64,000 nt of DNA from the NCBI GenBank assembly GCA_016218105.1, contig JACRET010000036.1:5304-69303 (forward strand), written 5' to 3'. A program made the position numbers and the translations under genes. This stretch comes from Deltaproteobacteria bacterium. Lineage in GTDB: Bacteria; Desulfobacterota; GWC2-55-46. Numbering within the stretch: the stretch's first letter is position 1; the number at the start of each line of letters is the position of its first letter. Below the pieces are notes generated by a model. The model saw only the letters and a program-made list of their open reading frames with translations. It ran no database searches and was not told the origin of the DNA. This document shows positions 8,739-57,050 of this stretch, in pieces.

Positions 8739-9845
8739 TTAAAGGGCGGACCGCACCTTCTCTCCGTCCTCATAACATGCTTCCAGAGCGGCATCAGTGA
8801 TACTATGGAGCGGCAGCACCGTATCTACCCCGCCGGTCTTTATCGCTTCTTTCGGCATGCCGAAGACGACGCAGGAGTGTTCATCCTGTGCGATATTGTG
8901 CGCGCCCGCCTGTTTCATCTCAAGCATCCCCAGCGCCCCGTCGTTGCCCATGCCGGTCAATATCACCCCCACGGCGTTTTTCCCGGCATATTGGGCCGCT
9001 GAGCGAAAGAGCACATTTACGGAAGGGCGGTGCCGGGATACCGGAGGGCCGTCTTTTATTTTCACATAATACCTCGCGCCGCTGCTCTTGAGGAGCATAT
9101 GGCGGTTTCCGGGGGCGAGGAGCGCCCGGCCCCTTATTACGGTATCGTCATCCTCGGCCTCTTTAACTGAAATAGCGCAAGAGGCGTCAAGATGCCTGGC
9201 GAATGTGGCTGTAAACTTCTCAGGCATATGCTGGACTATTACTATGCCGGGGCTGTCGGCCGGCATGGATTGGAGAAATACCTTGATAGCCTCTGTGCCG
9301 CCGGTAGACGCCCCGACCACTATGACCTTCTCGGTCGTCCTTATCATCGCCTTCGTACGCTTCCCGATAACGGCGTCGGGACTGAGGTTTGGCGGAATAT
9401 GGAGCGGGTGCGCCAGGGTGGTCCGCTTTACTTTTGATACAGAGGCGGCCTTTATGGCATCGCAGAGGAATATCCTCGATTCCTCCAAAAACTGCTTTGT
9501 TCCTATGCGGGGCTTTTGTATGATATCCAGCGCGCCGTACTCAAGGGCCTTAAGGGCCGTCTCAGAGCCGGATTCGGCGAGGCTCGATACGATTATCACC
9601 GGTATCGGGTGCTGAGTCATGATCTTATGGAGAAACGTGAGCCCGTCCATCCGGGGCATCTCTATATCCAGGGTTATCACATCCGGCGCATTCTCACGCA
9701 TCTTCTCCGCAGCCATAAAAGGATCTCCAGCCGTTGCCATTACCTCAAGCTGAGGGTCTGCAGAGATTATCTTTGATAATATCTGCCTTGCAACGGCTGA
9801 GTCGTCAACTACCAGCACCTTGATTTTCCTGCCTTTTATTTCCAT
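8739..9845 (-). CDS. cheB: CheB methylesterase (REC + esterase), last gene of the second Che operon
   Basis: [17 protein letters not shown]...[16 protein letters not shown], then [18 protein letters not shown] and LTGMGNDGA. The ATG at 9845 is preferred; the track ORF extends to a GTG at 9875. Confidence 0.9.
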
Positions 9846-9919
9846 AGAACTCGCCCAGCAATCAACCACCTGCACAAGCTACGGGGCGAAGACCACCAAA
9901 ACACCCCAGGAAAGCTGGC

Positions 9920-10405
9920 TCAGCCCTGCCCCTTTACCACTTTTTTGACGAAGACTTCCCCGGTACTCGTCAGAAACATCACCTTCCGGCCAGCGGTTCC
10001 TCCGATATCCTTACCCAGCACCATGATCCTGTTCTCTATGAGCGCGGTCTCGGCGAAAGAAATATTCCGGGCCCCGATATTCAATAATCCACTTGAGTTC
10101 TCAAGGATATTGGCCCCGCCGAATACCTTGGCCCTGAGATTACCCCTGCTACTGCCCAGGGATATCATCTTTTCGACCAGCATGGGAATAGCCACATTGC
10201 CGTACTTGGGGGTCTGAAGCCCATCGCCGTTCCAGAACGGCAGAAGGTAGTGGTTCATGCCTCCAAAATGAAGCGCCGCGTCCCACAGGCACACAGATAT
10301 GCATGAACCCAGCACGGTCGTTATCATGTGTTGTCCGCTCTGGGCGAAGATCATCCCCGGATAAAGGAAATGGCTGTCTGGCTTTGCCGCGTTTTCGAGA
10401 TTCAT
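9920..10405 (-). CDS. cheD: Chemoreceptor glutamine deamidase CheD
   Basis: CheD signature TVLGSCISVCLWD...GGMNHYLLP...KVFGGANIL...NIGARN. Its ATG overlaps the stop of the upstream kinase-like gene (TAATG at 10403-10407). Confidence 0.85.
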   Translation of the reverse strand: MNLENAAKPDSHFLYPGMIFAQSGQHMITTVLGSCISVCLWDAALHFGGMNHYLLPFWNGDGLQTPKYGNVAIPMLVEKMISLGSSRGNLRAKVFGGANILENSSGLLNIGARNISFAETALIENRIMVLGKDIGGTAGRKVMFLTSTGEVFVKKVVKGQG

Positions 10406-11304
10406 TAAAACCTCTCGCCATCGCTGCTCCCGAAGAAAAACTCGTTTCCGTCAACCGAGAAGTCGGAGGCTTCAGTTGCAGCCATTTCCGGTATTGATAT
10501 CGTAAAAACCGCGCCGGCCCCCTTTTTGCTGACAACGGTTATCGTCCCGCCAAGCAGTTCGAGCACCGATTTTATTATACTGAGTCCAAGCCCGTGCCCC
10601 CCGTGTCTCTTGGTAGCGCCTGTCTCAAGCTGGCGGAACCTTTCAAATACGGCTTTCTGATCCCTTTCATCTATACCGATGCCGTAATCGGTTACGGATA
10701 TATTCAAGCGGCCGCCGTCTTTCCAGGCCCTTATGGATATAGGCCTGCCCTCGATGCTGTACTCTATAGCGTTTGAAAGAAGGTTTAAAAGTACGGACTG
10801 GAGCTTTTCCGGGTCAGTCCTGAAAAAGTTATTTTTCGCGGAGTCGGTAAGTTCATAGGTGATATTGAGCCGCTTCTCATTTGCTCTGTGCTGGAAGGAC
10901 TCTATCGTGCTCTTAAGGAACGAATCCATATCCAGGGCTGCCGTGCTTAATACCGTGTCCCCCGCCTCGAGCTCCGCGGCCGTAAAGATGTTCCGGAGCT
11001 GGAAGCTCAGGTCAAAGGCTTCCCTGTGTATCGTGCTGACGAGGTTTTTGCAGATATCCAGGTCTACCTGGCTTTCGTTTGATATTATGAGCTCGCACAT
11101 CGTAAGTACGGATGTAAGCGGGTTATTTATCTCGTTCCTTATGTTCGACAGGAAGTGGCCTTTTACCTTTTCGGACTCCACGAGCCTTTCGTTCAGGCCC
11201 GCGAGTTTTTTTGTCATGGCCGTCAGGTCGTGGTAAGCCTTGTCCTTGGCTTGAAGACGGCTCATTATCTCTTTAACTATCTCGTCGTCCGAAAATTTAT
11301 TCAT
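10405..11304 (-). CDS. Soluble histidine-kinase-like protein (coiled-coil + HisKA-like + HATPase_c) with a non-canonical H-box
   Basis: N box LLNLLSNAIEYS, G1 VTDYGIGI, F box FERFRQ and G2 GGHGLGLSI are all present. The H-box reads KGHFLSNIRNEINNPL, with Asn where SHELRTPL has the His. There is no TM segment. Confidence 0.75.
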   Translation of the reverse strand: MNKFSDDEIVKEIMSRLQAKDKAYHDLTAMTKKLAGLNERLVESEKVKGHFLSNIRNEINNPLTSVLTMCELIISNESQVDLDICKNLVSTIHREAFDLSFQLRNIFTAAELEAGDTVLSTAALDMDSFLKSTIESFQHRANEKRLNITYELTDSAKNNFFRTDPEKLQSVLLNLLSNAIEYSIEGRPISIRAWKDGGRLNISVTDYGIGIDERDQKAVFERFRQLETGATKRHGGHGLGLSIIKSVLELLGGTITVVSKKGAGAVFTISIPEMAATEASDFSVDGNEFFFGSSDGERF

Positions 11305-11339
11305 GGCCTTGTCCCTCCGGCGCTCCGTACATGATTTTT

Positions 11340-11891
11340 TTAGAAAAACCTGAAATTGCCGCTCCTCCGGGAATCCCCGCCGCCAAAGACTTTTATGGGC
11401 CTGAGTATCACTTTCCCGGTATGCGTATAAAAAAATATCTTCCTGCCTTCGGAGCCTCCCGTATTCGATGCCGAGACCTTAAGCCCTTTGCTTTCAATGA
11501 TCCCGTAAGCCATCCTGAGGTTCTGGTACCCCACATTGACTCTCCTCGTATCGTAAAAGGCCGCCCCGCCGAAAACCTTGACCTCAAGCTCGTCCATGTC
11601 TCTTATTCCGAGTACCTTAAACCTGCTGAGCATAAATGTTATCGAGCTGTCTACGTACTTGAAGGCCTCTTTCAAGTCCCTGCGGCAGGAACCGCACTCA
11701 CCTGTGCATGCCCCTTTCACGCGCGGGGATATCGAATGGCATATGGAACCGGCCCTGAGCGAACGATCGAACAGGGCGACCGATACGCATGACCCGAGGA
11801 GCGTATGGACGAGCGCCGGCCTGTTGGCGAAGAAAAGTTCTCCTGGATTGAGAAACACGATCGGGAGGTCCGTGCACAGGGGGTTCATCAC
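11340..11891 (-). CDS. cheD: Divergent CheD paralog with a Cys-rich insertion
   Basis: TLLGSCVSVALFD...SICH...KVFGGAA...NVGYQN matches the CheD core, including the catalytic Cys and His positions. An extra segment KGACTGECGSCRRD follows the His. The start overlaps the cheR stop (ATGA at 11888-11891). Confidence 0.7.
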   Translation of the reverse strand: MMNPLCTDLPIVFLNPGELFFANRPALVHTLLGSCVSVALFDRSLRAGSICHSISPRVKGACTGECGSCRRDLKEAFKYVDSSITFMLSRFKVLGIRDMDELEVKVFGGAAFYDTRRVNVGYQNLRMAYGIIESKGLKVSASNTGGSEGRKIFFYTHTGKVILRPIKVFGGGDSRRSGNFRFF

Positions 11892-12757
11892 TTTTTCCTG
11901 TAGATGGAAGGAGCCACCTTCGAAAAAGGCAGGTCAAAGCCGCTCAGGGTCTCTGAGTGTCCGATAAACATATAGCTGCCGGGGTGCATGCACCCGGCGA
12001 ATTTATTGAAAAGCGTTGCCTGCGTCGCCTTGTCGAAATATATTATGACGTTCCTGCAAAATATTATGTCCTGCTTTTCAGGAAAGCCGAAATCCTCTTC
12101 CATGAAATTAAGCCTCTTAAGCTTCAATCGCGTCCTCAGTTCCGGGACTATCCTCACAAGGCCTTTTGAAGAGTCTTTGCTTTTCAAGACATACTTCTTT
12201 TTTAGATCCAACGGCACGGGTGTTATCCGATCTTCCTTATAGATGCCTTTTCCGGCCATGCTCAGCACCCTTGTGGAAATATCGGTTCCTGTTATCCTGT
12301 AATCGAAATCGAGTTCCGGACAGGAGCCCGAGTACTCATTTAATACCATCGCGATCGTGTAAGGCTCTTCGCCGGTCGAGCATCCGGCGCTCCATACGGA
12401 AAGCGGCTTTTTAATCCCCGCTTCACAGGTTCTTATGAGATCCGGGACAGCCGTACGCGTGAGAAAATCAAAGTGATAGGGTTCCCTGAAAAAATCGGTC
12501 TTATTTGTGGTGACGAGGTCTATCATATGGACAAGCTCCTGCTCCAGGCCCGCGGGACTGAACACAAAATCGCAGTATTCGCTGAAGCCTTTCATGCCCA
12601 GAGCCCGGAGCCTTTTCTGGAGCCTCGATTCCAGGAGGGCCCTCTTTGCGGGCGGCATCTTTATCCCCAGTTCCCTGTGGATGAAGCCGCTTAAAAGCCC
12701 GAAGACCTTCTCATCCATTCTTATGGTATTAAGAACCGCCCGCGCATCGTCTGCCAT
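11888..12757 (-). CDS. cheR: Chemotaxis protein methyltransferase CheR
   Basis: N-terminal helical domain plus the SAM-MTase core (VWSAGCSTGEEPYTIAMVL, IFCRNVIIYF). Confidence 0.9.
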   Translation of the reverse strand: MADDARAVLNTIRMDEKVFGLLSGFIHRELGIKMPPAKRALLESRLQKRLRALGMKGFSEYCDFVFSPAGLEQELVHMIDLVTTNKTDFFREPYHFDFLTRTAVPDLIRTCEAGIKKPLSVWSAGCSTGEEPYTIAMVLNEYSGSCPELDFDYRITGTDISTRVLSMAGKGIYKEDRITPVPLDLKKKYVLKSKDSSKGLVRIVPELRTRLKLKRLNFMEEDFGFPEKQDIIFCRNVIIYFDKATQATLFNKFAGCMHPGSYMFIGHSETLSGFDLPFSKVAPSIYRKK

Positions 12758-12782
12758 GTTTAATCCCCAAGCCCGGCGCGTC

Positions 12783-13277
12783 TTAAGCCGCCGGAGCCTT
12801 TATGTCCTGAACTACGGCGAGCTCTTCGGTAGAGAAGATCTCGTCTACCTCCAAGATGATTATGAACTGGTCGTCGCGCTTGCCCATGCCTTTGATAAAC
12901 TCGGTATTGAGCCGTGTGCCTATCCTCGGGGGCGGTTCTATCTGCCCCGGCTCGAGCTCTATGACCTCCTGAACCGAATCCGCAAGGGCGCCCAATACGA
13001 GTTTTTCCCCCTCAAGGTTGATCTCGACTATGATGATGCAGGTATTGACTGTCTGCTCCGTCTTTGACATGCCGAATTTGAGGCGCATATCGACGACCGG
13101 CACAACGCTGCCCCTGAGGTTGATAACCCCTCTCATGAAATCCGGCGTCCTCGGCACTTTGGTAACCGATGTAAAATCAAGCACCTCTCTGACCTTGGAG
13201 ATATCGAGGGCAAACACTTCGCTGTCCAGCTTGAACGTCAGGTACTGCGTCGTTTCCGCTACCGTGGGCACACTCAT
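12783..13277 (-). CDS. cheW: CheW coupling protein
   Basis: QYLTFKLDSEVFALDI...MRGVINLRGSVVPVVDMRLKFG is a typical CheW. Confidence 0.9.
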   Translation of the reverse strand: MSVPTVAETTQYLTFKLDSEVFALDISKVREVLDFTSVTKVPRTPDFMRGVINLRGSVVPVVDMRLKFGMSKTEQTVNTCIIIVEINLEGEKLVLGALADSVQEVIELEPGQIEPPPRIGTRLNTEFIKGMGKRDDQFIIILEVDEIFSTEELAVVQDIKAPAA

Positions 13278-13289
13278 CGCAAGCCTCCA

Positions 13290-14987
13290 TTAATATTTTA
13301 CGAATTCCGTATCTTCTTCGTCGTGCGTATCCAGATTCAGGGCCACCCCTCCGCTGTTGGCCGCAGCCTTGGCGGTTTTGGCGGACGCGGCCTGGGATAT
13401 GTGCGCGACCTTCGACCTCGAAGCCGGGTGCTTTGCGCCTTTTACGGCCTTAAGCTGCCTTGTAACCGGCGCGCCTGAATCCGAGATCTTGAAGAACGCT
13501 ATAGACGACTGGAGCTGTTCGGCCTGGGAAGATAGCTCCTCTGAAGTTGACGCAAGCTCCTCCGCCGCTCCGGCGTTCTGCTGGATAACCTGGTCAAGCT
13601 GCTGGAGGGCCCTGTTGATCTGGTCGGCGCCGCTGTTCTGTTCTCCGCTTGCCGCGGTGATCTCCTGTACAAGCTCGGAGGTCTTCTGGATATCAGGCAC
13701 GAGCTTCGCGAGCATCTCTCCGGCTTTCTCGGCTATCTGCACGCTTGTGGAAGAGAGCTGGCTTATTTCTCCTGCGGCTGTCTGGCTTCTCTCCGCGAGT
13801 TTCCTTACCTCGGATGCCACGACGGCGAAGCCTTTGCCGTGCTCGCCGGCCCTGGCTGCCTCGATCGCCGCGTTCAGGGCGAGGAGGTTTGTCTGCCTTG
13901 CTATCTCTTCTATGATAGATATCTTTGAGGCTATCTCTTTCATCGCGCTCACGGTCTCCGCCACGGCCTTGCCCGACTCCCTGGCGTCTGTGGCCGATTT
14001 ATTCGCGATCTTTTCCGTCTGCTGGGAGTTATCCGAGTTCTGTCTGATATTGGATGTCATCTCTTCCATCGAGGAAGACGTCTCTTCGATCGCGGCGGCC
14101 TGTTCGGTCGCACCCTGCGATATCTGTTGAGCGCCTGAGCTCAGCTCCTGGCTTCCGCCCGCAACATTGTCCGAAACGGCGCGCACATCCGCGACAACGC
14201 TTCTGAGCTTGTCGACCATGTTCTTCATGGCGGAGAGGAGCTGGCCTGTCTCGTCCTTGCCTTTTAATTCTATGTCTATAGTAAGATCGCCTACGGCAAG
14301 CTTATTAGCCACGTTCTCGGTAAGGTCCGACAGCGGCCTGGCGATCATCCTTGTAAGGAGCATGACAGCCGAAATAGCTACCGCTATGGCAAGGAAGGTA
14401 GCTCCTATGACAACGTTCCTGGTAAATATATAATCGGTCGCCGCCTGATCGTAAAGCTGCTTGCCGACCTCATTCTGTATCTCTATCAGCCTCTGGGATT
14501 TTTGATCCACAACCTTGAATTTAGCGCCCGCATCGTTAGCAGCATTGAACTTAGCCTGTTCAAATTTGCCTTCAAGCGCCCATTTGTAGGTATTTGTCCT
14601 TGATTCGTCATAGGCCTTCCAGGCCGGTATAAATTCATCAAGAACCTTTTTCTCCTCCGGTACCAGGTATGTCTGAGCGTACTTGTCTATCAGAGTGTTT
14701 ATCTCTTTCTCGTCCTCAGCGGACTGAGTGAAAATCGCCTGCCGCTTCGCGAGATCGGTCTCGTTCACGATCTTAAGCGCGCCCATCCTGATATTAGCGA
14801 GCGACATATTCACCTTCCCGAGGTCCACAACAGGGACAAACCTGTCATCGTAGAGCGACTGGAGATCGCCTTTCAGGTCCATAATCCTGTTTATGCTTAG
14901 GGCTCCCAGGAGCAGCACGAAGACCACTACCAGGGCAAAGCTTAAAGTAAGTTTGGAGCTTGTTTTCATGTCTCTAAAAAAATTCAT
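13290..14987 (-). CDS. mcp: Methyl-accepting chemotaxis protein (4-helix-bundle-type periplasmic sensor, HAMP, MCP domain)
   Basis: Start placed at the ATG at 14987 ([23 protein letters not shown]..., GGAGG RBS). The longer track ORF would overlap cheA. HAMP is VGDLTI; the tip is [38 protein letters not shown]. Confidence 0.9.
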
Positions 14988-15111
14988 TACGTCCTCCGAT
15001 TTTTTAGATTTACAGGTAGCTGACACACTCTCACCGCAGCCAGCTCCTTTTTTAGCCTGATAGAATATGTGTATCTCCGGAAAACTCCCTTTCCATCCTT
15101 TCCCTCCCTGA

Positions 15112-17283
15112 TCATGAGGCCCTTGAGGCCTCATGCTCGACGCAGGCGATAAGCCTTGGGATATCGAGTATCAGCGCGACCTTGCCGTTTCCCATAATGG
15201 TCGCCCCTGAAATGCCCTGGATGTCCCTGTAGACCCTTCCGAGCGATTTGATGACCGTCTGCACCTCACCGTAAAGCTCATCCACCACAAGCCCTATCTT
15301 TACCGAGGCGTATTGCACGACCACGATATTTTCGAAACGGGGGCTCTCACCCGCGAGCCTGAAAAAATCGCGGAGCCTTACATAGGGGAGAACTTCGCCC
15401 CTCAGATTGATGTAGCTTCTCCTGCTGGCGGCCTGCCTTTCCGCGTCAGAAAGTTCCACGCATTCAACCACCATATCTAGCGGTATTACGTACGAAGAGC
15501 CCTGTACCCCGACCATGAAGCCGTCTATGATGGCAAGCGTGAGCGGCAGCCTTATGACGACCTTGGCGCCGGCGCCCTCGGCGCTTTCAACATCAACGGT
15601 CCCTCTTAAGGATTCGATATTACGCTTGACGACATCCATTCCAACGCCCCTTCCCGAAAGCTTCGTTACCGCTTCCGCCGTCGAGAAGCCCGGCTCGAAT
15701 ATAAACCGGAATATTTCATTGTCCGTAAGAGACTGCGCCGTGTTTGCGAGCCCCAGGGCTATCGCCTTATCGAGTATCTTTTTGCGGTTGAGCCCCCTGC
15801 CGTCGTCGATTATCTCTATTACTATCGACCCGGCGTCGTGATATGCGTTGAGGCGGATAGTCCCTTTTGACGGCTTGCCCGCGCTTACCCTCTGTTCGCT
15901 CGTCTCTATCCCATGGTCTGCGGCGTTACGCACGAGGTGCATCAGAGGGTCGCTTATCTTCTCGACCACCGTCTTGTCAAGCTCGGTCTCCCCACCCTTG
16001 ATCTCCAGCTCTATTTCCTTGCCGGTCTCCTTGCTTATATCCCTTATTACCCTGTTAAAGCGGCTGAACGTCTCGCCTATCGGCACCATCCTGATCTTCA
16101 TCGAAGTATCGCGGATCTCCTCCACGAGGCAGAGCATCGACGAGGCGGACTCAAGCAGCCATGTGTCTTTTATACGCTGGGCCTGCTGGTCTATATTGGC
16201 GCTCGATATCACGAGCTCGCCGACGAGGTTTATCAGGGAGTCGAGTTTATCCGCGTCTATGCGGATAGTCTTCGCCTCTTTCGACTTGACCTCCTGCGTC
16301 TTTTTCTGCTTAAGGAGCGCGGCGTCTAGAATGTCTTGCTGAACCATGTGCTCGCTTACCAATATTTCCCCTAGCAGGCGTTTTCCTTCCTCCGCTCCCG
16401 CATCCGGCCTGCCCTGGAGCTTCAACGCCTCTTCCAGTTCCGGTTGGGTGAGCGCGCCGCCGTTGACAAGTATCTCCCCAAGCAGGAGCGTATCTTCCGG
16501 CAAGCCGTTTATAAGTTCCACATAGGATTCGATGCGGCTGTGAGGCGGAAGGATGTGTATCTTGCAGTCCTCACGGACGAATTCGAAGACATCTTCAATA
16601 GCCTTTTTGTCAAAATCACTTTTGAAATCCACTTCGAAGCCGAGGTAACAGCTCTCCGGGTCTGCAGCTTCAAGCGGCGGAATGGAATCGAAGATGGTAG
16701 TGAGGCTTGTGACCTCACCGAGCTTTGAAAGGTAATTGATGAACGGGATCGGGTCCATCCCTCCCCGCAGCACGTCGGGCCCGAACCGGAGAGAGATATG
16801 CCATGCGTCAGTTTGGGCCAGCGTGCCCGTTATCGCAGCCGCGGGGGCATCCGCTCCTTTAGCTTCTTTGCGGGGCTTTTCCTCTTTTGTCCCGAGTATC
16901 TGAGTGAGCCTTACCAGGAGCTCCGCGTCTTTTGCCATGACGGTGGCGGTCAGCGGCGCATCGGATGCCGCCAGCTCTATAAGGGCTTTTATATGGTCCC
17001 TGCATTCGAGAAGGAGCTCTATAGCCTCATTTGTTATCCCGATCTCGCCCTCGCGAACCTTCGAGAGGAGATTTTCCACTACGTGAGTGAACTTTTCGAC
17101 ATGATCGATACCCAGGATCCCGGACGCCCCTTTGATCGTATGGGCTGACCGGAAAAGCGAATTTATGGTGTCCTGGTCATCGGAGGACTTCTCCAGTATG
17201 AGAAGCGCGTTTTCCATCTCGACAAGAAGCTCCGAGCTTTCGGTTATGAACGTCAGTTTCGCCTGGGTTAATTCTATCTCCAT
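15112..17283 (-). CDS. cheA: Chemotaxis histidine kinase CheA
   Basis: Hpt ([12 protein letters not shown]), a dimerisation region, the HATPase core ([27 protein letters not shown]) and a C-terminal CheW-like domain. Confidence 0.92.
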
Positions 17284-17597
17284 GCTGCCCCTTTGCTGCT
17301 GTCTGCTTCGAAATAGGTTCTCATATTGTAGAGTTCGATGACCGTCGCGGCGGCCTGACTGATATTCACCAGCGTAAGCTCTCTGCTTTTTTGAACAGCC
17401 TCCTTCTTCGCGAGCAGGAGGAGCTGAAATCCCGAGGTATCCATCTCGTTTACCTCTGAAAGGTCCATAGCAAGGTCCCTGTTTTCAGCCAGCGCGTCGA
17501 GCAAACCCTTTTTCAGGGCTGGCGCGTTGTATATGGTCATCTCTCCCGATATGCGCATCAAATCCCCGCGCTCATTATTTTCCATCATTATCTCCAC
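17274..17597 (-). CDS. STAS-domain protein (anti-sigma-factor-antagonist fold) embedded in the Che operon
   Basis: 107 aa; RISGEMTIYNAPALKKGLLDAL...LSEVNEMDTSGFQLLLLAKKEA is SpoIIAA/STAS-like. It overlaps the cheA start by 10 nt. Confidence 0.7.
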   Translation of the reverse strand: MEIMMENNERGDLMRISGEMTIYNAPALKKGLLDALAENRDLAMDLSEVNEMDTSGFQLLLLAKKEAVQKSRELTLVNISQAAATVIELYNMRTYFEADSSKGAAWR

Positions 17598-17613
17598 GCG
17601 CTTCCTCCTTGCC

Positions 17614-17982
17614 TCAGGGCATTATCAATTTTGAAATGGCTTCCAGCATCTGCTCGGGCTTGAAGGGTTTGACGACCCAGGCCTTCGCCCCGGCCATCTT
17701 TCCCTCCTGTTTTTTATTCTCCTGGGATTCCGTCGTGAGCATTATCACAGGGGTGAATTTATAAGAGGCGCTGGTCTTGATGTTTTTGAGAAATGAGATT
17801 CCGTCCATGTTAGGCATATTCACGTCGCATATCATGAGGTTTACCTTCTGGCCCTGGAGCTTGCCTATCGCGTCTCTCCCGTCGCATGCCTCGATAACGT
17901 CGTAGCCGGCCTTCTTAAGGGTAATATTCACGACCTGCCTGATCGAAGCCGAATCATCGATAACCATTATTGTCTTTGCCAT
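17614..17982 (-). CDS. cheY: Single-domain response regulator CheY
   Basis: 122 aa; IMVIDDSASIRQVV...CDVNMPNMDGISF...KAWVVKPF. Confidence 0.92.
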   Translation of the reverse strand: MAKTIMVIDDSASIRQVVNITLKKAGYDVIEACDGRDAIGKLQGQKVNLMICDVNMPNMDGISFLKNIKTSASYKFTPVIMLTTESQENKKQEGKMAGAKAWVVKPFKPEQMLEAISKLIMP

Positions 17983-18018
17983 CTTAAGCCTCCTGGATAT
18001 TCCCCGCCGGGTTGATTT

Positions 18019-19362
18019 TTAAAAGAAAGTAACGTCGCTCTGCGCGACCCTTGGCGCCTTCGCGTTGGCGCTTTTTTTACTGCCCCCGCCCTGGTTCACG
18101 ATTTCGAGGTGAATGTTTCTCTGCTGCTCCATCACATAATAGCTGTGAATGTCTTCCATATTGAATTCCGGAAGCCTGCACTCCGAGGTGCACAGCTCCG
18201 GCATTGCAAGGCAGTCTTGAAGCCTTCTTATGTAAGCGTCGGTATCTGAAATGGTCCTCATGACAAGCTCAATCTGCTGGCGGACGATATCCTGGAACTG
18301 CACATTGGCAAGCAGATCGGTCACTTCCCTGGCGACCTCATCGCTCCCAAGGCTTACCTGGGCGAGTATCTCCTTATTAAGCGTATCCAGCTCGCCATAG
18401 CTTTTTCCGAGCTTCGCGAGCTGCGCCTCAAGGCTCAGGAGGAGCGTGCCTTCTTCCTTGTTATTGTGCTGGTTGAGCTTTACCGCGAACTTCTCCTCTA
18501 TGTCCTCGGCCATCTGAACCATGGCATGGCCTATCTTTGTGGCGGCCTGCTCGGACTGCGTGGAGAGCTTCCTGACCTCTGAGGCGACTATGGCGAAGCC
18601 TCTTCCGTGTTCGCCCGCCCTTGCCGCTTCTATGGCGGCATTCAACGCAAGCAGATTCGTCTGGTCGCTTATCTCCTTTAAAAGATCGACAAACTTGGTC
18701 ATCGATCGCGCCTTTTCCGCGAGCGCCAGCACCGCCTTATAATCCTTGTCAACCTCTGAAAGGCGTTTTTCCACGTAGTGCCGGAGGGCCGAGATCGTCT
18801 CTTCGTTCGCGGCTATGGTCTCTCCGGAGACTGTGGCGAGGGACTCGCTCTCCTGCTGGAGCTTGAGGAGGGTCTGCTGCATTCCTCCCATTGACCGGTC
18901 TATGGCCTGTGATTGGGAGATGATCATGTTCGCGGCTGAATCGGTTTCTCCTATGATGTTGTTGAGATGTGCCTTTGCCAGCTTGTTTATATCCTGCTGG
19001 GCCTCGAAGTAGCGGCCCACCTTCGCTTCCCTGTTCTGTAAATGCTCGCTGTAAGCCGTAATCTCATCTACCAGTTCTTTTTCCGTCTCCGCTATCCTCA
19101 AAAGAGACCGGCCTGCCGATTTAAAGCTGATGGCCTGCACTATCACGACGGCCGTGATTACCCAAAAAGCGTCTTCCAATGCCCTTGAATATCCCTGTGA
19201 AAAAAAGCGGCTTAAGAAGCCCTGTATGTAATCCCAGAAAAAAAGCTCTATAAAGCCGGGAATAATCAAAGCCAGGGCCGTTGTTGCGAAAAAGATCCGT
19301 TTGTAGGTGGGGATGTAGAGGAAGAGGAAGGAATCGGATCTTCTATTTAGAGTTTCTGCCAT
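18019..19362 (-). CDS. Short membrane-anchored MCP-like protein (two N-terminal TM helices, no periplasmic sensor domain, MCP tip, Cys-containing C-terminus)
   Basis: The TM helices are close together. The tip is [38 protein letters not shown]. The C-terminal region carries [15 protein letters not shown] and [12 protein letters not shown]. It is the first gene of the Che2-like operon. Confidence 0.75.
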
Positions 19363-38938: not shown

Positions 38939-40672
38939 ATGAAGAACCTAAGCATCAAAGCGAGGCTCATAGCGATATTGGCTGTGTTTGTGATCATAAG
39001 CTCGGGATCGGTCATATACAGCCTCGTGAACATAAGGAGCCAAAAAGGAGATACTCAAATAATCAATCTGGCTGGAAGGCAGAGGGCTTTGACGCAGGCC
39101 CTGGCCAAATCGGTCTTCGGTCTGCACCACAGCGCTGAGGAAGACAATATTGATCCAGTCCAAAAACTAAAAAATATAGACTTTTACAGGTCTGATCTTA
39201 TAGAGAAAAAAAAGGTCTTCAACGATACCCTAACTGCCTTCGCGAACGGCGGCACGGCGGTGAACAGCGAGGGCAATCAGGTCATCATACAAAAAACCCT
39301 GGACAAGGGACTATCCGCCAAGCTTGAAGAATCCAGGGTCCTCTGGGATAAGTTCTCGAAGCAGATAGACGTTATCATCGCGGGCATCAACAACACTGGA
39401 GACCCCGGGGTTGACGCCGCCATAGAGTATATAGAGCAGAACAATATGCCCTTATTCAAAGACATGAACAAGGTTACGCTCCTTTTTCAGGGATTATCGG
39501 ATTCCAAGCTCATTTGGTTCAAAAACTTCCTCTATATAGGGTTACTGCTTAATCTCATGACCTTTGGCGCGGTTATCTGGCTGTTCCACAGGCTCATAAT
39601 CGCGAGGCTCGCCGCGCTCCACCAGCACATGCAGGACATCACCAGCGGAGAGGGCGACCTTACCAAGAGAGTAAAAACCGAATCATCCGATGAAATAGAC
39701 GTCCTCGGACAGGAGTTCAATTTGCTTCTCGGAAACTTCGAAGTCGTAATTTCCAGGCTCATGGGCAGCACCTCTCTCCTTAAAAACTCATCCGAAGGGC
39801 TTTCATCTACGTTCTCCACTATGGTAGACGGCATCGGGATCCAGGACCAGAAGACAAGCCAGGTGGCTACGGCCATGGAAGAGATGAGCGCGACGGTCGT
39901 TGAAGTGGCCAGGAGCGCCTCAAATATGGCTGAAGTCGCCGCAAACGCCGATAACGCGGTAAAGAGCGGTGAAGTGTCGGTTAATAAGGTTATCGGCAGG
40001 ATGAACGATATCGCCCAGTCCACAAGGAATTCGGCCGCTGTCGTTGGCGCGTTAGGCGTAGAATCCCAGAAGATCGGCAATATCATACAGGTCATCAATG
40101 ACATCGCCGACCAGACGAACCTCCTTGCGCTTAATGCCGCGATCGAGGCCGCCAGGGCCGGAGACCAGGGCAGGGGCTTTGCCGTAGTAGCGGACGAGGT
40201 CAGAAAACTCGCGGAGCGCACTACAAGGGCCACAAAGGAAATAGACGTGATGATCAGGTCGATCCAGGAGGAATCTAGGAAGGCTGTTGAATCGATTCAG
40301 AAGGAGTCCGCCACGGTGGATGAGGGGGTGCTGCTTACCAAAGAGGCCGGTGCCGCACTCCTGGATATCACAGACTCCATAAAGAACGTAACGTATATGA
40401 TACAGCAGATAGCCACAAGCACGGAGGAACAGTCGGCTGTAGCTTCAACAATAAGCGCTGACATGGAAACTGTCGCGGGTATCTCAAAAGATTCCTCCAG
40501 GGAAGTCCGGAAAGTAAGCTCCCTGGCACACGACCTGAGTTCGCTGGCGCTGGAGATAGAAGGCAGCCTTTCGAGGTTCAAGGTAAGCGCCTCTATGAAA
40601 AAAGATACCGGTGCCGAGCCCGATGATGTCGTAGTTCCGATCAGTGCGAGACTGGCCATGGGGGACGCGTAG
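38939..40672 (+). CDS. mcp: Methyl-accepting chemotaxis protein with a PilJ/NarX-type (P-box-like) periplasmic sensor
   Basis: N-terminal [21 protein letters not shown] (PilJ/NarX P-box-like), a second TM, HAMP (GEGDLT) and the tip [38 protein letters not shown]. Confidence 0.88.
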
Positions 40673-51774: not shown

Positions 51775-51849
51775 CAGACTATAATTCGACATGCAATGTC
51801 ATTATGTTGCCTGTTTTGATGGTGGGCGGTGCACACCCTGATTATCTGT

Positions 51850-52452
51850 CTATTTGTCACCATACTCAACGGCTGCCTTTATCGCCTCCACGATATTTTT
51901 ATGTATTGAATCTTTTTTCTTATTTATTTCCGCGATATCAAAATAAGAATTAAAATTGATAGTATTGCCATTAGGTTCTTCGTAATATCCAACCGTCTCC
52001 ATCTTCCATGTCCCGTCGGTATAAAACTCTAGACCCATGTTAACCTTTGTACCATTTTCTGGCTGAAACTGTATGTCAGTACTAAAATCCGATAAAACCA
52101 GCAATCTATCCTCGTACATACTTGTCCGTATAAAGCTATTAATTTGACCGTCATTTGCGTATCTTTGTCCTCCTATATACTTATAACGCCAAACACCTGG
52201 ATTTTTCTTGAACTGCACACCCGCATCCATAAGCTCTTTGATTTTTTTAGCAACCACCTTTGTTAATTCGTCAATGCATCGATCCATTGCTTTCTGTTTT
52301 TCCGCCTTGGTAACTTCTTTCTTCCTTTCGTTGGCGGCATTGGTTTTTTGCTGTTTTATAATATCTTCTGCATTGGAACTGAATGCTGCAATAGGAGAAA
52401 TCAGGTTAATACGATTATTAAGACGAATATTCTCATTGGAAGTTCTCCACAA
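51850..52452 (-). CDS. Hypothetical protein in an AT-rich region, bracketed by inverted REPs
   Basis: A 200-codon ORF from a TTG. The first ATG is at codon 56 (MDRCIDEL..., 52287). I recognise no motif. The N-terminus is Lys/Glu-rich and the C-terminal half looks beta-rich. Confidence 0.45.
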   Translation of the reverse strand: MWRTSNENIRLNNRINLISPIAAFSSNAEDIIKQQKTNAANERKKEVTKAEKQKAMDRCIDELTKVVAKKIKELMDAGVQFKKNPGVWRYKYIGGQRYANDGQINSFIRTSMYEDRLLVLSDFSTDIQFQPENGTKVNMGLEFYTDGTWKMETVGYYEEPNGNTINFNSYFDIAEINKKKDSIHKNIVEAIKAAVEYGDK

Positions 52453-52472
52453 TACGATTAATTGAGAGCCAC

Positions 52473-52507
52473 GTAGGTTGGGTTAGCGAAGCGTAACCCA
52501 ACAAACC
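52473..52507. repeat. REP hairpin 2 (opposite orientation to REP1 and REP3)
   Basis: GTAGGTTGGGTTA-GCGAAGCG-TAACCCAAC. It abuts the stop codon of the RAYT gene. Confidence 0.85.
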
Positions 52508-53050
52508 TTATTCATGCCCGATATTGCCTTCAAACTCGATCTCGCTCTCCGCGCTCCAATCAATAGCGTAAAGGCCATCTTTTACATATCGATGAAAGCT
52601 TGAGTAAGGCCACTCTTTGGGCGACTTTACCAGCCCGTGTTTCACAGGATTATAATGAATATAATCAACGTGTCTTATAAAATCATCTTCATTCACAATC
52701 GTGTGTTCCCAAAAACGGCGTTGCCAAACCGCCTGTTCGCCACTTTTTACCCTTGAAGCCGTCTGCGGGTTTTTATATTTATTGTGACAGCCCTTTGTGA
52801 AGCACGTTTTAAAGAGCCTCCATCTCGTCGAGAAGTCGTTGTCGTTTTCAGGCAATGTCCAGATACAATGTATATGGTACGGCAACAGAACGAATGCATC
52901 CATCATAAAGGGGCGTTGGGTCATTACACGTTTAAACGCCTCTTTTATGAGCAGCACATTGGCCTTGCGGCACAAAATCTTTTTTCTTCCGTGCGTGACC
53001 ACAGTAAAGAAAAATGTCGCACCTTTTGCTTTCGACCTGCGATATTGCAT
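52508..53050 (-). mobile_element. REP-associated tyrosine transposase (RAYT; IS200/IS605-type Y1 HUH transposase)
   Basis: 180 aa; FFTVVTHGRKK, the HUH motif LLPYHIHCIW, WQRRFWEH, and the catalytic Tyr region YIHYNPVKHGLV. It is flanked on both sides by inverted REP hairpins. Confidence 0.85.
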
Positions 53051-53060
53051 CTCTTCTATT

Positions 53061-53099
53061 GTGTTGGGTTACGCTCCGCTAACCCAACCTACCAGACTA
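53061..53099. repeat. REP hairpin 3
   Basis: GTGTTGGGTTA-CGCTCCGC-TAACCCAAC-CTACCAGACTA, with the same loop and 3' tail as REP1. Confidence 0.85.
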
Positions 53100-53158
53100 A
53101 CGCAGGCTCCTCTACACCAAATACAGCCCTCTTTTTTGTCTTGACGATGGGGATAGCT

Positions 53159-54037
53159 TTAAGCAAAACATCTGTGCCTGCCATGAAACCAGAATGTCTG
53201 AGTTATTATAAATTTTAAAAAATCGTAATCTTCCGGTTTGAATTTATGGTGTGTAACAAAAATCTTATTAAAAGCACTTTTGTTTAAATTTTCCCACTCA
53301 CCATTCTCGCGATTTCCAAACAGCTCGGACCAAGTTTTTTCAACCTTTTTGAATCCATATGTTTTGTTTTTACCATCAAACCCTTGGAGTCCAATTTTAT
53401 TGAGCGTCTTGGCAATTTGAGAGTCGATCACAAAAGACTTTCCATTCACATTTGTTAAAGCCCATAAGGCAAGCTTGTCACCGACACCGTTAATTTTATT
53501 TTCTTTTCCTTGAAAATTTTTTTGAAAAAATTGTTCATTATTATCAAACATATCAATCATGCTGCAGATAGTTGTGTCACATTTCCATTTATGAATTTTA
53601 TCTACTATCGAAAAAAGTACCATCAAACCGCCGAGCCAGAAGCGACCAGGAACTGTGTCGTATAATCTTTTAAAATCGACATCTTCTAAAAGTGTTTTAA
53701 AATTTTTGCTATTTTCAGTATCAGCTAGAAAACTATCGTAAGCTGATTTTCTATTCAGTTTAGCTTCCTTATAAGAGTTAAGTAGTGCCGCGATACAGCG
53801 CACATTCTGTTTTTCCATTCTTATTTTTATTAGAGTTTTTTTTAGATTTTTATTATTTTCTCGAAATAATTGAATCTCCTCATCGCTAGTTGCCCTATCT
53901 AAAAATGCTGTCAGGAAATAATGGTCGTGGTCTGCATTTTTATCTTTTAAACGTTCATCGAGCTGATGTTTCACATGATACGCAATAATTTGTTTTTCAG
54001 GGTCATGTGGCAGATATACCATCTCCACATCAAGCAT
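53159..54037 (-). CDS. Hypothetical AT-rich orphan protein with an HhH-GPD (endonuclease III / glycosylase)-like C-terminal half
   Basis: INGVGDKLALWALTNVNGKSFVIDSQIAKTLNKIGL parallels the EndoIII segment [37 protein letters not shown], with the HhH, the Lys and the Asp in register. The C-terminal FWFHGRHRCFA parallels LILHGRYTC, but the protein stops before any Fe-S cluster loop. Confidence 0.4.
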   Translation of the reverse strand: MLDVEMVYLPHDPEKQIIAYHVKHQLDERLKDKNADHDHYFLTAFLDRATSDEEIQLFRENNKNLKKTLIKIRMEKQNVRCIAALLNSYKEAKLNRKSAYDSFLADTENSKNFKTLLEDVDFKRLYDTVPGRFWLGGLMVLFSIVDKIHKWKCDTTICSMIDMFDNNEQFFQKNFQGKENKINGVGDKLALWALTNVNGKSFVIDSQIAKTLNKIGLQGFDGKNKTYGFKKVEKTWSELFGNRENGEWENLNKSAFNKIFVTHHKFKPEDYDFLKFIITQTFWFHGRHRCFA

Positions 54038-54112
54038 CTCCTTAAGAATGCTCTCTAGTTTCTTAGGTGTTATTGTTATCTTTTTATCCTTTTTTATATT
54101 GTCCCTTATAAA

Positions 54113-54161
54113 CTTGCGCCAGCTTCCCTATCTCCTCAGCAACGTAGGGGAAGAGCGCAAG
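54113..54161 (-). terminator. Imperfect inverted repeat just downstream of tRNA-Leu (possible terminator)
   Basis: CTTGCGCCAGCTTCCC...GGGGAAGAGCGCAAG. On the minus strand it is followed by TTTATAAG. Confidence 0.35.
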
Positions 54162-54175
54162 TAATTGATTTTAAA

Positions 54176-54263
54176 TGGTGCCCGAGGCCGGACTCGAACC
54201 GGCACGGCTTTGAGGGCCGCGGGATTTTAAGTCCCGTGCGTCTACCAATTCCGCCACTCGGGC
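54176..54263 (-). tRNA. tRNA-Leu (anticodon UAA) with encoded CCA
   Basis: The reverse complement is GCCCGAGTGGCGGAATTGGTAGACGCACGGGACTTAAAATCCCGCGGCCCTCAAAGCCGTGCCGGTTCGAGTCCGGCCTCGGGCACCA. It has a 7-bp acceptor stem, anticodon loop CT-TAA-AA, a long variable arm and a GGTTCGAGTCC T-loop. Confidence 0.92.
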
Positions 54264-54471
54264 ATATAAAGGCCCGCAAAACCCAATTATACACAGATTT
54301 ATACACGCCGCCAGGCGCTTTGATAAAACCACCTTGTCACAATTATCAAATATTTAAAGTTCTGTCAACAACGGCCGATAATTATTACAGGCTATTCGCT
54401 TATTTTCTTTTGAAAAATTTGCGATCATTCTTCAATTAATGGCTGACACAGATTACAAGTCTTGGTTTACC

Positions 54472-54499
54472 TTGACAATTGTGGTTTCATTGTTATAAT
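54472..54499 (+). promoter_or_regulatory. Near-consensus sigma70 promoter for the cytochrome-porin gene
   Basis: TTGACA, a 16-nt spacer, then TATAAT. It lies about 100 nt upstream of the ATG at 54603. Confidence 0.55.
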
Positions 54500-54602
54500 T
54501 ACGGAAAATCGGCAAAGGAGGATGCCCTTTAAAGGCCGACCTTTCCCTTTCGGGTTTTTTCTGTTTTTAAAAAGGCTGCAAACTAATATCAAAGGAGGTT
54601 GT

Positions 54603-55841
54603 ATGAGTAGAAAATTAATTTATGCTGTGGCCATGGTTTTTTTCTTCGCGTTCTCTGTATTCGCGACCCGCGAGGCCTCAGCAGTACCAGCTTTTGCAAG
54701 GCAGACCGGCATGGCCTGTAATTCATGTCACTTCCAGCACTTCCCAACGTTGAATGCCTTTGGTCGCGCCTTCAAGGAAGGCGGGTACACCCAGATCGGC
54801 GGACAGAGCCTTATAGAAGGCGACTACCTTTCCCTGCCCGTCAATCTCAATGCATCGCTGGTTACGAAGATCAGATACCAGAAGAGAAATGGGGATAGCG
54901 AAACCGGCAGCGCAGGCAATCTCAATAAAGGCGAATTTCAGTTCCCTGACGAAGCCGCTCTCTTGATCGGCGGACGCGCAGGCGAACATATCGGCTTCCT
55001 CCTTGAAGCTTCGCTTAAGGACGGCGACAGCCGCTTTACATCTTTCAAGGCTCCTATCGTATTCGACACAATGGGCGTGAAACTCAGCGCCATACCTTTT
55101 ACAACTGATTCAGCCGGACCGTCATACGGTTTTGAACTTTTAAACACCGGCGCCGTAAGGATGGATCGCATCCTTGAGCACAGGACTCAGACCTCAGCCC
55201 AGCAGTACATAGGCACGGACGGCGCGGCCACAGGCGCTTCCTTTGTAGCCTCAAAGGGAATCGGTTATGTCAACTATACGCTCTGGTATCCTGAGCACGG
55301 TGATGCGGCCGCAGGGCCGTTCTTGAATTACCTCAGGGTAGCGGCGACACCGACGATAGCCGGTTGGGATATCGGCGGCGGTTTCCAGCTCTGGAACGGA
55401 ACATCAAAGATAGGCAATGGCGCAGCCGCCACACAGGAGAGGGCTGACGCATGGGCCATAGACGCGCAGGCTCAGGGCACAGTCGGAACCTTACCGATAG
55501 GCGTTTATTTTACTTACGCTAACGCTGCCAAGTCAGACGCGAGTGAGATCGAAAACAGGTACAACGCCTCAACAGTAGACGATAAGACCGCATGGACCAT
55601 CCTCGGTGAAGTCGGCGTAATCCCGAACAGGCTTACGCTCGCGGCAGCGTATCGCTCCGGGAAAAATGGCGACCCCAACGACAACGGCCAGGACAGCGAC
55701 AACGCCACAACAGTCGGCGCTGTTTACAATGCCACACAGAACCTCCAGGTTCATGTCAACCACTCATTCCTCTCTGGTGACGTGACAACTGACGCGAGCG
55801 GCGATCAGCTTACAACAGTAATGCTCTTCGCAGCGTTCTAA
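54603..55841 (+). CDS. Cyc2/Cyt572-like fused monoheme cytochrome c - outer-membrane beta-barrel protein
   Basis: Start at the ATG at 54603 (AAAGGAGG RBS). The signal peptide ends ASA. It is followed immediately by VPAFARQTGMACNSCHFQHFPTLNAFGRAFKEGGY, which carries the protein's only CXXCH (54717-54731). The remaining ~370 aa are Gly/aromatic-rich with alternating beta-strand pattern and contain no other Cys. The C-terminus is an aromatic residue (...MLFAAF). Confidence 0.6.
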   Translation: MSRKLIYAVAMVFFFAFSVFATREASAVPAFARQTGMACNSCHFQHFPTLNAFGRAFKEGGYTQIGGQSLIEGDYLSLPVNLNASLVTKIRYQKRNGDSETGSAGNLNKGEFQFPDEAALLIGGRAGEHIGFLLEASLKDGDSRFTSFKAPIVFDTMGVKLSAIPFTTDSAGPSYGFELLNTGAVRMDRILEHRTQTSAQQYIGTDGAATGASFVASKGIGYVNYTLWYPEHGDAAAGPFLNYLRVAATPTIAGWDIGGGFQLWNGTSKIGNGAAATQERADAWAIDAQAQGTVGTLPIGVYFTYANAAKSDASEIENRYNASTVDDKTAWTILGEVGVIPNRLTLAAAYRSGKNGDPNDNGQDSDNATTVGAVYNATQNLQVHVNHSFLSGDVTTDASGDQLTTVMLFAAF

Positions 55842-55860
55842 GACTCTAGCAGAACGGTTC

Positions 55861-55894
55861 AAAGGGAGGGTTTAAACAACCCTCCCTTTTTTTA
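55861..55894 (+). terminator. Rho-independent terminator after the cytochrome-porin gene
   Basis: AAAGGGAGGGTT-TAAAC-AACCCTCCCTTT followed by a T-run. Confidence 0.85.
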
Positions 55895-55958
55895 TTTCCA
55901 CGAAAAGGCTTCTCCCCCTGCCCTCAAAAACCATAGCGGGTTCGAGCGCTCTGTGGCT

Positions 55959-56999: not shown

Positions 57000-57050
57000 A
57001 GTTGGCCCCGGATACTTTATCGGCTTTTATATCGAAAACTTAACCACACC

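Follow-up and report, generated by a model that had tools for sequence, protein, structure and literature searches.

A kinase-like protein without its phospho-acceptor histidine, encoded beside a dedicated CheD: an apparently undescribed accessory module of chemosensory systems

What is the role of a histidine-kinase-like gene that lies between two cheD genes in a chemosensory operon? The question is raised by a stretch of 64,000 nucleotides (hereafter, the window) from a deltaproteobacterium of the lineage Desulfobacterota GWC2-55-46 (assembly GCA_016218105.1, contig JACRET010000036.1, positions 5,304 to 69,303). Between cheR and cheB, the minus strand of the window carries a first cheD (cheD2, 11340..11891), a gene coding for a kinase-like protein of 299 aa (10405..11304) and a second cheD (cheD1, 9920..10405). 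An earlier note on this DNA read the three genes as a classical two-component-type kinase placed between duplicated receptor deamidases, a 'divergent' one (cheD2) and a 'canonical' one (cheD1). The answer given here is a different one: the kinase-like protein has lost its phospho-acceptor His, the conserved unit is very probably formed by this protein and cheD1, and cheD2 is the resident gene of the operon.

The kinase-like protein matches the Pfam families HATPase_c (E=1e-27) and HisKA (E=5e-7). Its H-box is degenerate (F51-L63, FLSNIRNEINNPL; 11116..11154, minus strand). In the phmmer alignment with HK853 (FIANISHELRTPL), Asn57, encoded by the AAC codon at 11136-11134, takes the place of the phospho-acceptor H260. 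All of the 120 nearest full-length homologues (identities of 46% or more) have the Asn at this position. An exhaustive profile search over 1.84 billion representatives yielded 114 members of about 300 aa among its best 150 matches, and a family alignment was built from 115 diverse representatives (50% clustering). In this alignment the His column holds Asn in 113 sequences, E58 (position +1) is kept in 111 and N61 (position +4) in 112. E58 and N61 retain the E-x-x-N phosphatase motif and agree, as a sequence criterion, with the motif of the HisKA transmitters (E/D-x-x-T/N, with Thr or Asn at H+4). The remaining 36 of the best 150 matches are long multidomain kinases, 25 with a canonical SHE(L/I)RTP box, one with Gln and ten that the pattern did not match.

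With a fixed Asn at the His site, the protein can neither autophosphorylate at the canonical position nor act as a phosphodonor. The second signaling branch suggested in the earlier note is therefore excluded in so far as it would work by His-Asp phosphotransfer. The upstream His50 was considered as an alternative phospho-site and rejected, as this column varies between Ser, Asn, Asp and His among the homologues. Gene decay was also rejected, given the strong conservation of the protein across phyla. The only family member found with a His at the phospho-acceptor position is P0237 (L094, 858-1787; FLSNIKHEINNPL). Since it is still followed by a cheD of the WNG type described below, P0237 is regarded as a point variant and not as a separate lineage of active kinases; it could be a natural revertant.

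The ATP-binding (CA) domain (10480..10944, minus strand) has intact N, G1, F and G2 boxes. In the family alignment N178, G236, G238 and G240 are present in 115/115 sequences, G208 in 114/115 and D206 in 106/115, and these columns are also invariant in alignments A1 and A3. The conserved C-terminal tail (10408..10473, minus strand) comprises a D-G-N-E-F-x-F motif, an acidic stretch and a terminal Phe. G286, F289 and F299 are invariant in alignment A1, the last residue is Phe in 85 of the 115 members, and acidic residues make up 32% of the last 12 positions. The tail is probably a docking peptide.

The AlphaFold2 model (mean confidence score, pLDDT, 79) shows an N-terminal helical stalk that is continuous with helix 1 of the dimerization and histidine phosphotransfer (DHp) domain (helix 6-74), a second helix (82-114) that closes the DHp hairpin, a CA fold whose lid is disordered, and a tail that is likewise disordered (278-299). 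No sensor, input or transmembrane domain is present in this model besides stalk, DHp, CA and tail, and no PAS domain is detected by Pfam. The best fold matches are the complexes of HK853 with the response regulator RR468, with DivL in fourth place. The model superimposes on regulator-bound HK853 with a root-mean-square deviation of about 3 Å, against 6.4 Å for free HK853, and ATP-bound kinases also fit worse. The protein is not a CheC or CheX: neither has a Pfam or NCBIfam match in it, the fold is DHp-CA, the CheC motif D/S-x3-E-x2-N-x22-P is absent, and the sole overlap with the CheC/CheX/FliY motif is the E-x-x-N dyad. The similarity to HATPase_c_2 is weak (24.6 bits for a cut-off of 27.4). 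No Pfam or NCBIfam family is specific to the protein, and all its NCBIfam matches are generic and below their cut-offs.

Of the features of a classical HisKA kinase, the protein keeps the CA boxes and lacks the phospho-acceptor His, a sensor or transmembrane input and a cognate response regulator. The name of classical two-component-type kinase cannot be maintained for it. Public records label it as 'HAMP domain-containing histidine kinase', which appears to be wrong on both counts, as no HAMP domain is detected and the phospho-acceptor His is missing. From its sequence, the 299-aa protein is a soluble, sensor-less DHp-CA pseudo-kinase.

The linkage of the pseudo-kinase to cheD is conserved. 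A genome scan with one genome per species gave 441 relatives, and the best 80 span Thermodesulfobacteriota, Nitrospirota, Magnetococcales, Deferribacteres, Rokubacteria, Desulfuromonadales and Cytophagales. Rhodocytophaga aerolata KACC 12507 (L076) is a carrier that is available in culture. Among 83 non-redundant loci, the next gene after the pseudo-kinase is a cheD in the same orientation in 82, and the one exception stops at a contig edge. The possibility that the kinase-like gene is a lineage-specific insertion with no conserved linkage to cheD, raised in the earlier note, is contradicted by these 82 loci. The complete genome of a Thermodesulfobacteriota member (L001) has the order MCP-cheY-STAS-cheA-mcp-cheW-cheR-[kinase-like, cheD]-cheB (MCP, methyl-accepting chemotaxis protein), without an upstream cheD. 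In addition, the pairwise identities between pseudo-kinases correlate with those between their partner CheDs (r=0.85). It can be stated with high confidence that the conserved unit is a two-gene module, a pseudo-kinase followed by a dedicated cheD, which is present in hundreds of bacterial species.

This pair occurs in at least six distinct gene contexts, dnaN-[pair]-gyrB among them. It is flanked by cheR and cheB in 19 loci and by dnaN and gyrB in 14, has cheB upstream in five and cheA upstream in two, and is followed by cheY in nine (six of them with no recognized upstream gene); in 20 loci neither side was recognized. Magnetominusculus and a metagenome-assembled genome labeled Magnetococcales have dnaA-dnaN-[pair]-gyrB. 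In magnetotactic Nitrospirota, across several genera, the pair lies inside dnaA-dnaN-[pair]-gyrB-gyrA, at the usual recF site and distant from the che genes. The dnaN-[pair]-gyrB arrangement is recorded for L003-L006, L019, L021-L027, L029, L031, L035, L037, L040, L042, L051 and L086. Two further neighborhoods were observed. On the contig of L054, a divergent Response_reg-SpoIIE-HATPase_c_2 gene (CrsR-like; L093, 5102-6784) is placed directly upstream of the pair and is reminiscent of the output through STAS and a serine phosphatase that has been reported for F7 clusters. Another kind of cheD-kinase adjacency is seen in L088 (181-3202), where a CheD of 206 aa is followed by a dCache-PAS-HisKA-HATPase_c kinase, a response regulator and then cheR-cheD-cheB.

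The CheD of the pair belongs to a subfamily of its own. CheD1 (Pfam CheD, E=3e-27, 95.5 bits) was aligned to the Thermotoga maritima CheD (2F9Z), and its catalytic residues T30, C35 and H52 are intact and invariant in 80/80 partner CheDs. Directly after the catalytic His, the partner CheDs carry the signature HYLLPxWNGxGLxxPxYGN, which has no counterpart in the T. maritima protein. The signature is present in 80/80 partner CheDs, against 1/97 CheDs of the cheD2 type, and in 118 of 120 additional CheD1 homologues (the best 120 listed). In a neighbor-joining tree the partner CheDs form a single clade. The only protein of the cheD2 set with the signature, P0189, falls in this clade; it was predicted beforehand that a pseudo-kinase would be encoded upstream of it, and its upstream neighbor is indeed a 299-aa protein of the Asn type with FLSNIRNEIINPL and an acidic tail. 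Two further distant CheDs with the signature, one from Bacteroidota, also have a pseudo-kinase upstream. Every NCBIfam CheD equivalog scores CheD1 under its cut-off, which is consistent with a separate subfamily. By sequence, CheD1 has an intact active site and represents a dedicated CheD subfamily whose members occur only next to the pseudo-kinase.

The other CheD of the window (cheD2; Pfam CheD, E=6e-18, 65.4 bits) is 30% identical to CheD1 and belongs to a separate CheD clade, so that the two are not duplicates, and the labels 'canonical' and 'divergent' should be exchanged: cheD1 is the special form and cheD2 the ordinary one. The relatives of cheD2 are the sole cheD in clusters STAS-cheA-mcp-cheW-cheR-cheD-cheB that have no kinase-like gene (L087 and L089), and in the window cheD2 occupies the canonical cheD slot after cheR. 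Its T-L-L-G-S-C and C-H motifs are kept in the window and in the two closest relatives of the locus (L007 and L008), with the catalytic residues intact. The gene is about 45% identical to its orthologues in L007 and L008, compared with 69-95% for most neighbor genes; STAS also diverges fast (44% identity in L007) and the cheY of L008 gave no orthologue match. To judge from its relatives and its position, cheD2 is an ordinary, fast-evolving resident CheD of the F7 type, and the window therefore holds a resident cheD plus an inserted pair. An upstream cheD, and with it the sandwich, is seen in just 3 of about 84 loci (the window, L007 and L008), and there the three genes adjoin each other with tight spacing. 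Of the synteny proposed in the earlier note, the link between the kinase-like gene and the following cheD is thus general, and the three-gene arrangement is restricted to these close relatives. It may represent an intermediate stage in the replacement of cheD2.

At the loop where the partner CheDs have WNG, cheD2 has a C-x-x-E-C-x-S-C insert: CTGECGSC in the window (11340-11891, minus strand), CAFECSSC in L007 (9453-9929) and CAFECTSC in L008 (5091-5606). The insert may be a metal-binding knuckle. It was rejected as a general feature of cheD2, since it occurs only in these three loci and in one partial case.

How the pair may act can be proposed by analogy. The most likely reading, tentative and put at a probability of roughly 35-40%, is that of a functional analogue of CheC-CheD on a DHp-CA scaffold. 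A dimer of the pseudo-kinase would dock phosphorylated CheY (CheY~P), or the receiver of CheB, on DHp helix 1. The docked receiver would be sensed and probably dephosphorylated, with N61 (together with E58 and N57) positioning the attacking water, while nucleotide in the CA domain would stabilize the phosphatase-competent state. As the pseudo-kinase would also bind its CheD, the level of CheY~P would set the amount of CheD free to act on the receptors.

Several reports are in line with these steps. The Thr or Asn at H+4 positions the water and is specifically required for the phosphatase activity of HisKA kinases (PMC3510030), for which the His is reported as dispensable (PMC12632262). In EnvZ and HK853 the phosphatase is stimulated by the CA domain in its ADP- or nucleotide-bound form (PMC7005713), which would explain an ATP pocket that stays intact without autophosphorylation. 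CheC is a CheY~P phosphatase of the E-x-x-N type that binds CheD; the binding is strengthened by CheY~P and the activity of CheC is stimulated by CheD (PMC3513319). On the side of the pair itself, the near-invariant E58 and N61, the better fit to regulator-bound HK853 and the cheY gene beside the pair in many loci favor this mechanism.

Other observations weigh against it. According to Mideros-Mora et al. (PMC7005713), the His takes part chemically in the phosphatase reaction, so that a variant with Asn might dephosphorylate poorly. In the work of Willett and Kirby (PMC3510030), phosphatase activity did not require the H+1 Glu, and the invariance of E58 is then not accounted for by a phosphatase role alone. 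Nor does the mechanism account for a strict Asn instead of any non-His residue. No response regulator is adjacent to the pair in the dnaN-gyrB and orphan loci. Fusions of pseudo-kinase and CheD were not found among the best 120 CheD1 homologues (134-192 aa), nor among the best 120 (all 287-334 aa) or best 150 homologues of the pseudo-kinase, where the longer proteins are the multidomain kinases. The loci inspected are, moreover, the best 80 of the 441 relatives. The chemoreceptor consensus for CheD is reportedly [AS]xx[QE][QE]xx[AS] (Chao et al. 2006); at most 2 of 115 pseudo-kinases match it at any position, and receptor mimicry was rejected.

The same evidence can be read in other ways. The pseudo-kinase might be a non-catalytic sensor or scaffold similar to DivL, which would bind a phosphorylated receiver or the receptor array and allosterically sequester or release CheD without dephosphorylation. 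DivL is the fourth-best structural match and reportedly a His-less kinase repurposed to read a phosphorylated response regulator (PMC4211667). In Bacillus the binding of CheC to CheD outweighs the enzymatic activity of CheC (PMC3513319), and, if the His is chemical in the phosphatase reaction, its loss could have abolished activity (PMC7005713). However, a pure scaffold should not require E58, N61 and all the ATP-box residues to be nearly invariant, and in contrast to DivL, with its Tyr and large PAS inputs, the family has an Asn and lacks any input domain. This explanation is considered rather unlikely. A kinase with a target other than His, which would phosphorylate Ser, Thr or Tyr of CheD, of a receptor or of STAS in the manner of RsbW/SpoIIAB and in this way exert an ATP-dependent control of deamidation, one of the ideas of the earlier note, would agree with the invariant N, G1, F and G2 boxes, with the weak HATPase_c_2 similarity, with the D-T-S-G motif in the STAS gene of the window and with the link of F7 clusters to STAS partner switching in the literature. 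The intact boxes do not discriminate, since nucleotide is also needed for the phosphatase state of HisKA proteins. The fold is the full DHp-CA of HisKA, not the RsbW type, and roughly half of the loci, namely the dnaN-gyrB and orphan ones, have no STAS, whereas CheD accompanies the pseudo-kinase throughout. STAS was consequently rejected as an obligatory partner, and such a kinase is improbable.

It is highly improbable, but worth setting out, that the pseudo-kinase is instead a substrate or pseudo-substrate of CheD1, with one of the H-box residues N57, N60 and N61 deamidated, or the helix occupied, as a switch of its activity. Three invariant or near-invariant Asn residues stand on an exposed helix of a four-helix bundle, and the MCP region on which CheD acts is also a four-helix bundle. 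The partner CheDs have a remodeled loop that follows the catalytic His directly, the pair is also maintained at a distance from che genes, and CheC binds CheD by mimicry of a receptor site at which an engineered Gln is deamidated (PMC3513319). On the other hand, the known activities of CheD are those of a Gln deamidase and a Glu methylesterase, and it is not known to deamidate Asn (PMC3513319; NCBIfam names), and the consensus given above is nowhere conserved in the family. A bolder and still less probable form holds that the primary substrate of WNG-type CheDs is their own pseudo-kinase and not the chemoreceptors, for example by conversion of Asn57 into Asp at the former phospho-site. This would explain the survival of the pair far from che genes, between dnaN and gyrB. 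If true, deamidation of the H-box Asn would switch a DHp-CA protein between states, irreversibly or cyclically, an amide-to-acid covalent signaling on a histidine-kinase scaffold that is not known in two-component systems. The three-gene unit of duplicated deamidases, for which the contiguity and tight spacing in the window, L007 and L008 speak, is largely refuted by the rarity of the upstream cheD, the separate clades and 30% identity of the two CheDs, the existence of cheD2-type genes as the sole cheD of clusters without a pseudo-kinase, and the much faster divergence of cheD2 relative to most neighbors.

The operon that hosts the pair (8739..19362, minus strand) consists of eleven open reading frames (ORFs), and the gene order and the coordinates of the three genes given in the earlier note were borne out by ORFs, Pfam and NCBIfam. 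From 19362 to 8739 the order is McpA-like receptor, cheY, STAS, cheA, mcp, cheW, cheR, [cheD2], [pseudo-kinase, cheD1] and cheB. Pfam identifies the McpA-like MCP (19362-18019), STAS (17597-17274), the second MCP, which has a four-helix-bundle (4HB) and a HAMP domain (15134-13290), cheR (12757-11888) and cheB (9875-8739). The cheY gene (17982-17614), outside the Pfam batch, was assigned from NCBIfam matches below their curated cut-offs (PhoB 88.2 bits; CheY PRK10610 85.7 bits, cut-off 189) and from the Response_reg annotation of orthologues in related loci. The cheW gene (13277-12783) was assigned from the Pfam CheW annotation of positional orthologues and the tblastn recovery of cheW in related loci. 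The best NCBIfam match of cheA (17283-15112) is the E. coli type (PRK10547, 452.8 bits), under the cut-off. By gene order, assessed against Ortega 2020, the backbone matches ancestral F7-type clusters, in agreement with the Che2(F7)-like assignment made before; STAS and the McpA-like receptor are standard there (PMC7184735). Among the 30 non-nested ORFs from 19.5 to 64 kb with a length of 180 aa or more, Pfam found no cheC or cheX, as had been noted.

The junctions between the genes are tight. The stop of the kinase-like gene and the start of cheD1 overlap in TAATG (10407-10403), as claimed before, and couple the two genes in translation. The NCBI annotation of cheD1 (P0366) has 144 aa and begins at an internal Met; since the conserved H(F/Y)LYPG motif precedes this Met, the long ORF and the TAATG overlap are supported. 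The overlap of cheR and cheD2 at 11888-11891 is also real, but was misread as ATGA: the bases are GTGATG, the cheR stop TGA occupies 11890-11888, and the overlap is GTGA (GTG start at 11891) or TGATG (ATG start at 11888). A spacer of 35 nt with a GGAGGG ribosome-binding site separates cheD2 from the kinase-like gene. No convincing terminator was found in the stretch from cheR to cheB, and for internal terminators or promoters, which would divide the operon, there are only weak matches at chance level.

Other features of the window deserve a record. CheA (15112-17283, minus strand) contains an inserted MshE-type c-di-GMP-binding motif at residues ~266-290 (NCBIfam NF053729, 34.1 bits; cut-off 38) and a degenerate second copy at ~302-326. 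The first copy is kept in the CheA of 17/25 related clusters and suggests a c-di-GMP input into such CheA proteins. The C-terminus of the 4HB-HAMP receptor (13290-13330, minus strand) ends in EEDTEFVKY, where an acidic linker leads to an x-F-x-x-Y motif that resembles the pentapeptides by which CheR and CheB are tethered. Immediately downstream of the operon, and also on the minus strand (8574-675), comes another complete chemosensory cluster, Wsp/ACF-like and about 160 nt from the first cheB, with cheW, cheR-TPR, cheW, mcp, cheA-REC and cheB. At 38939-40672 (plus strand), about 20 kb from the che clusters, a further, orphan MCP combines HAMP with an N-terminal domain of the PilJ type. A low-GC stretch (~51800-57000; 38% at 52-54 kb, about 51% elsewhere) contains five ORFs of 180-459 aa without a Pfam match and may be a horizontally acquired island.

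The full-text literature searched holds no description of the pair or of the pseudo-kinase family, with the reservation of a possible mention in Wuichet and Zhulin (2010), nor any named accessory module of this kind, as the earlier note had supposed. The pseudo-kinases are apparently a new family of pseudo-histidine kinases and the pair an undescribed CheD-associated accessory module of chemosensory systems, most likely a feedback module. CheD is widespread, and what it does is understood only for systems that have CheC; F7-type systems and many others have CheD without CheC, and the ancestral function of F7 is called 'still unknown' (Ortega 2020, PMC7184735). A dedicated CheD partner on a histidine-kinase scaffold offers a concrete handle on the function of CheD in such systems. 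Few bacterial pseudo-histidine kinases are known, and the family would add a large and cleanly defined group to them, would correct the current database label, and provides a natural experiment in which a HisKA domain has lost the His and kept the phosphatase motif and the ATP pocket.

Compared with known systems, the pair shares with the RsbW/SpoIIAB-STAS partner switches (CrsR/CrsA in Shewanella) the presence of a GHKL ATPase domain and STAS in one operon, a likeness to which the CrsR-like gene of L093 adds. It differs in that HATPase_c_2 is below threshold, a DHp domain is present and STAS is missing in about half of the loci. Like the pseudo-histidine kinases (DivL, RetS-type, PsmA and the ChrS variant), the protein has a histidine-kinase fold repurposed as a regulator without canonical phosphotransfer; about 0.9% of HisKA domains lack the His (PMC12632262). 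Unlike DivL, which has a Tyr at the His position and PAS inputs and binds phosphorylated DivK, it has Asn, no PAS and a minimal architecture, and its links are with CheD and chemosensory clusters instead of cell-cycle or Gac networks. The HisKA kinases in the phosphatase state (HK853-RR468, EnvZ and CrdS) are the best matches in sequence and structure, with the DHp-CA fold, the H+4 Asn and the nucleotide pocket in common. These bifunctional kinases differ from the pseudo-kinase, which lacks the phospho-acceptor His, a sensor or transmembrane input and a dedicated adjacent response regulator, and which has cheD as its obligatory neighbor and a conserved peptide at its C-terminus.

The host operon has the gene set of the ancestral 'stage 1/2' F7 clusters (Pseudomonas aeruginosa Che2, Vibrio cholerae cluster III and Shewanella oneidensis Che1), namely McpA-like receptor, STAS, cheY, cheA, cheW, receptor, cheR, cheD and cheB (Ortega 2020, PMC7184735). 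Those clusters have a single cheD and no kinase-like gene, and the receptor of the window is 4HB-HAMP and not the Aer2-type PAS-HAMP. With CheC-CheD of Bacillus subtilis and T. maritima, the pair has in common a CheD encoded beside, and presumably acting together with, a partner with an E-x-x-N-type phosphatase motif, and the proposed logic is alike, with CheY~P setting the availability of CheD and CheD modulating its partner. The partner is here a HisKA/HATPase_c protein with an ATP pocket instead of the CheC fold and shows no receptor-mimic motif, while the CheD belongs to a distinct subfamily and the pair is also maintained outside che clusters.

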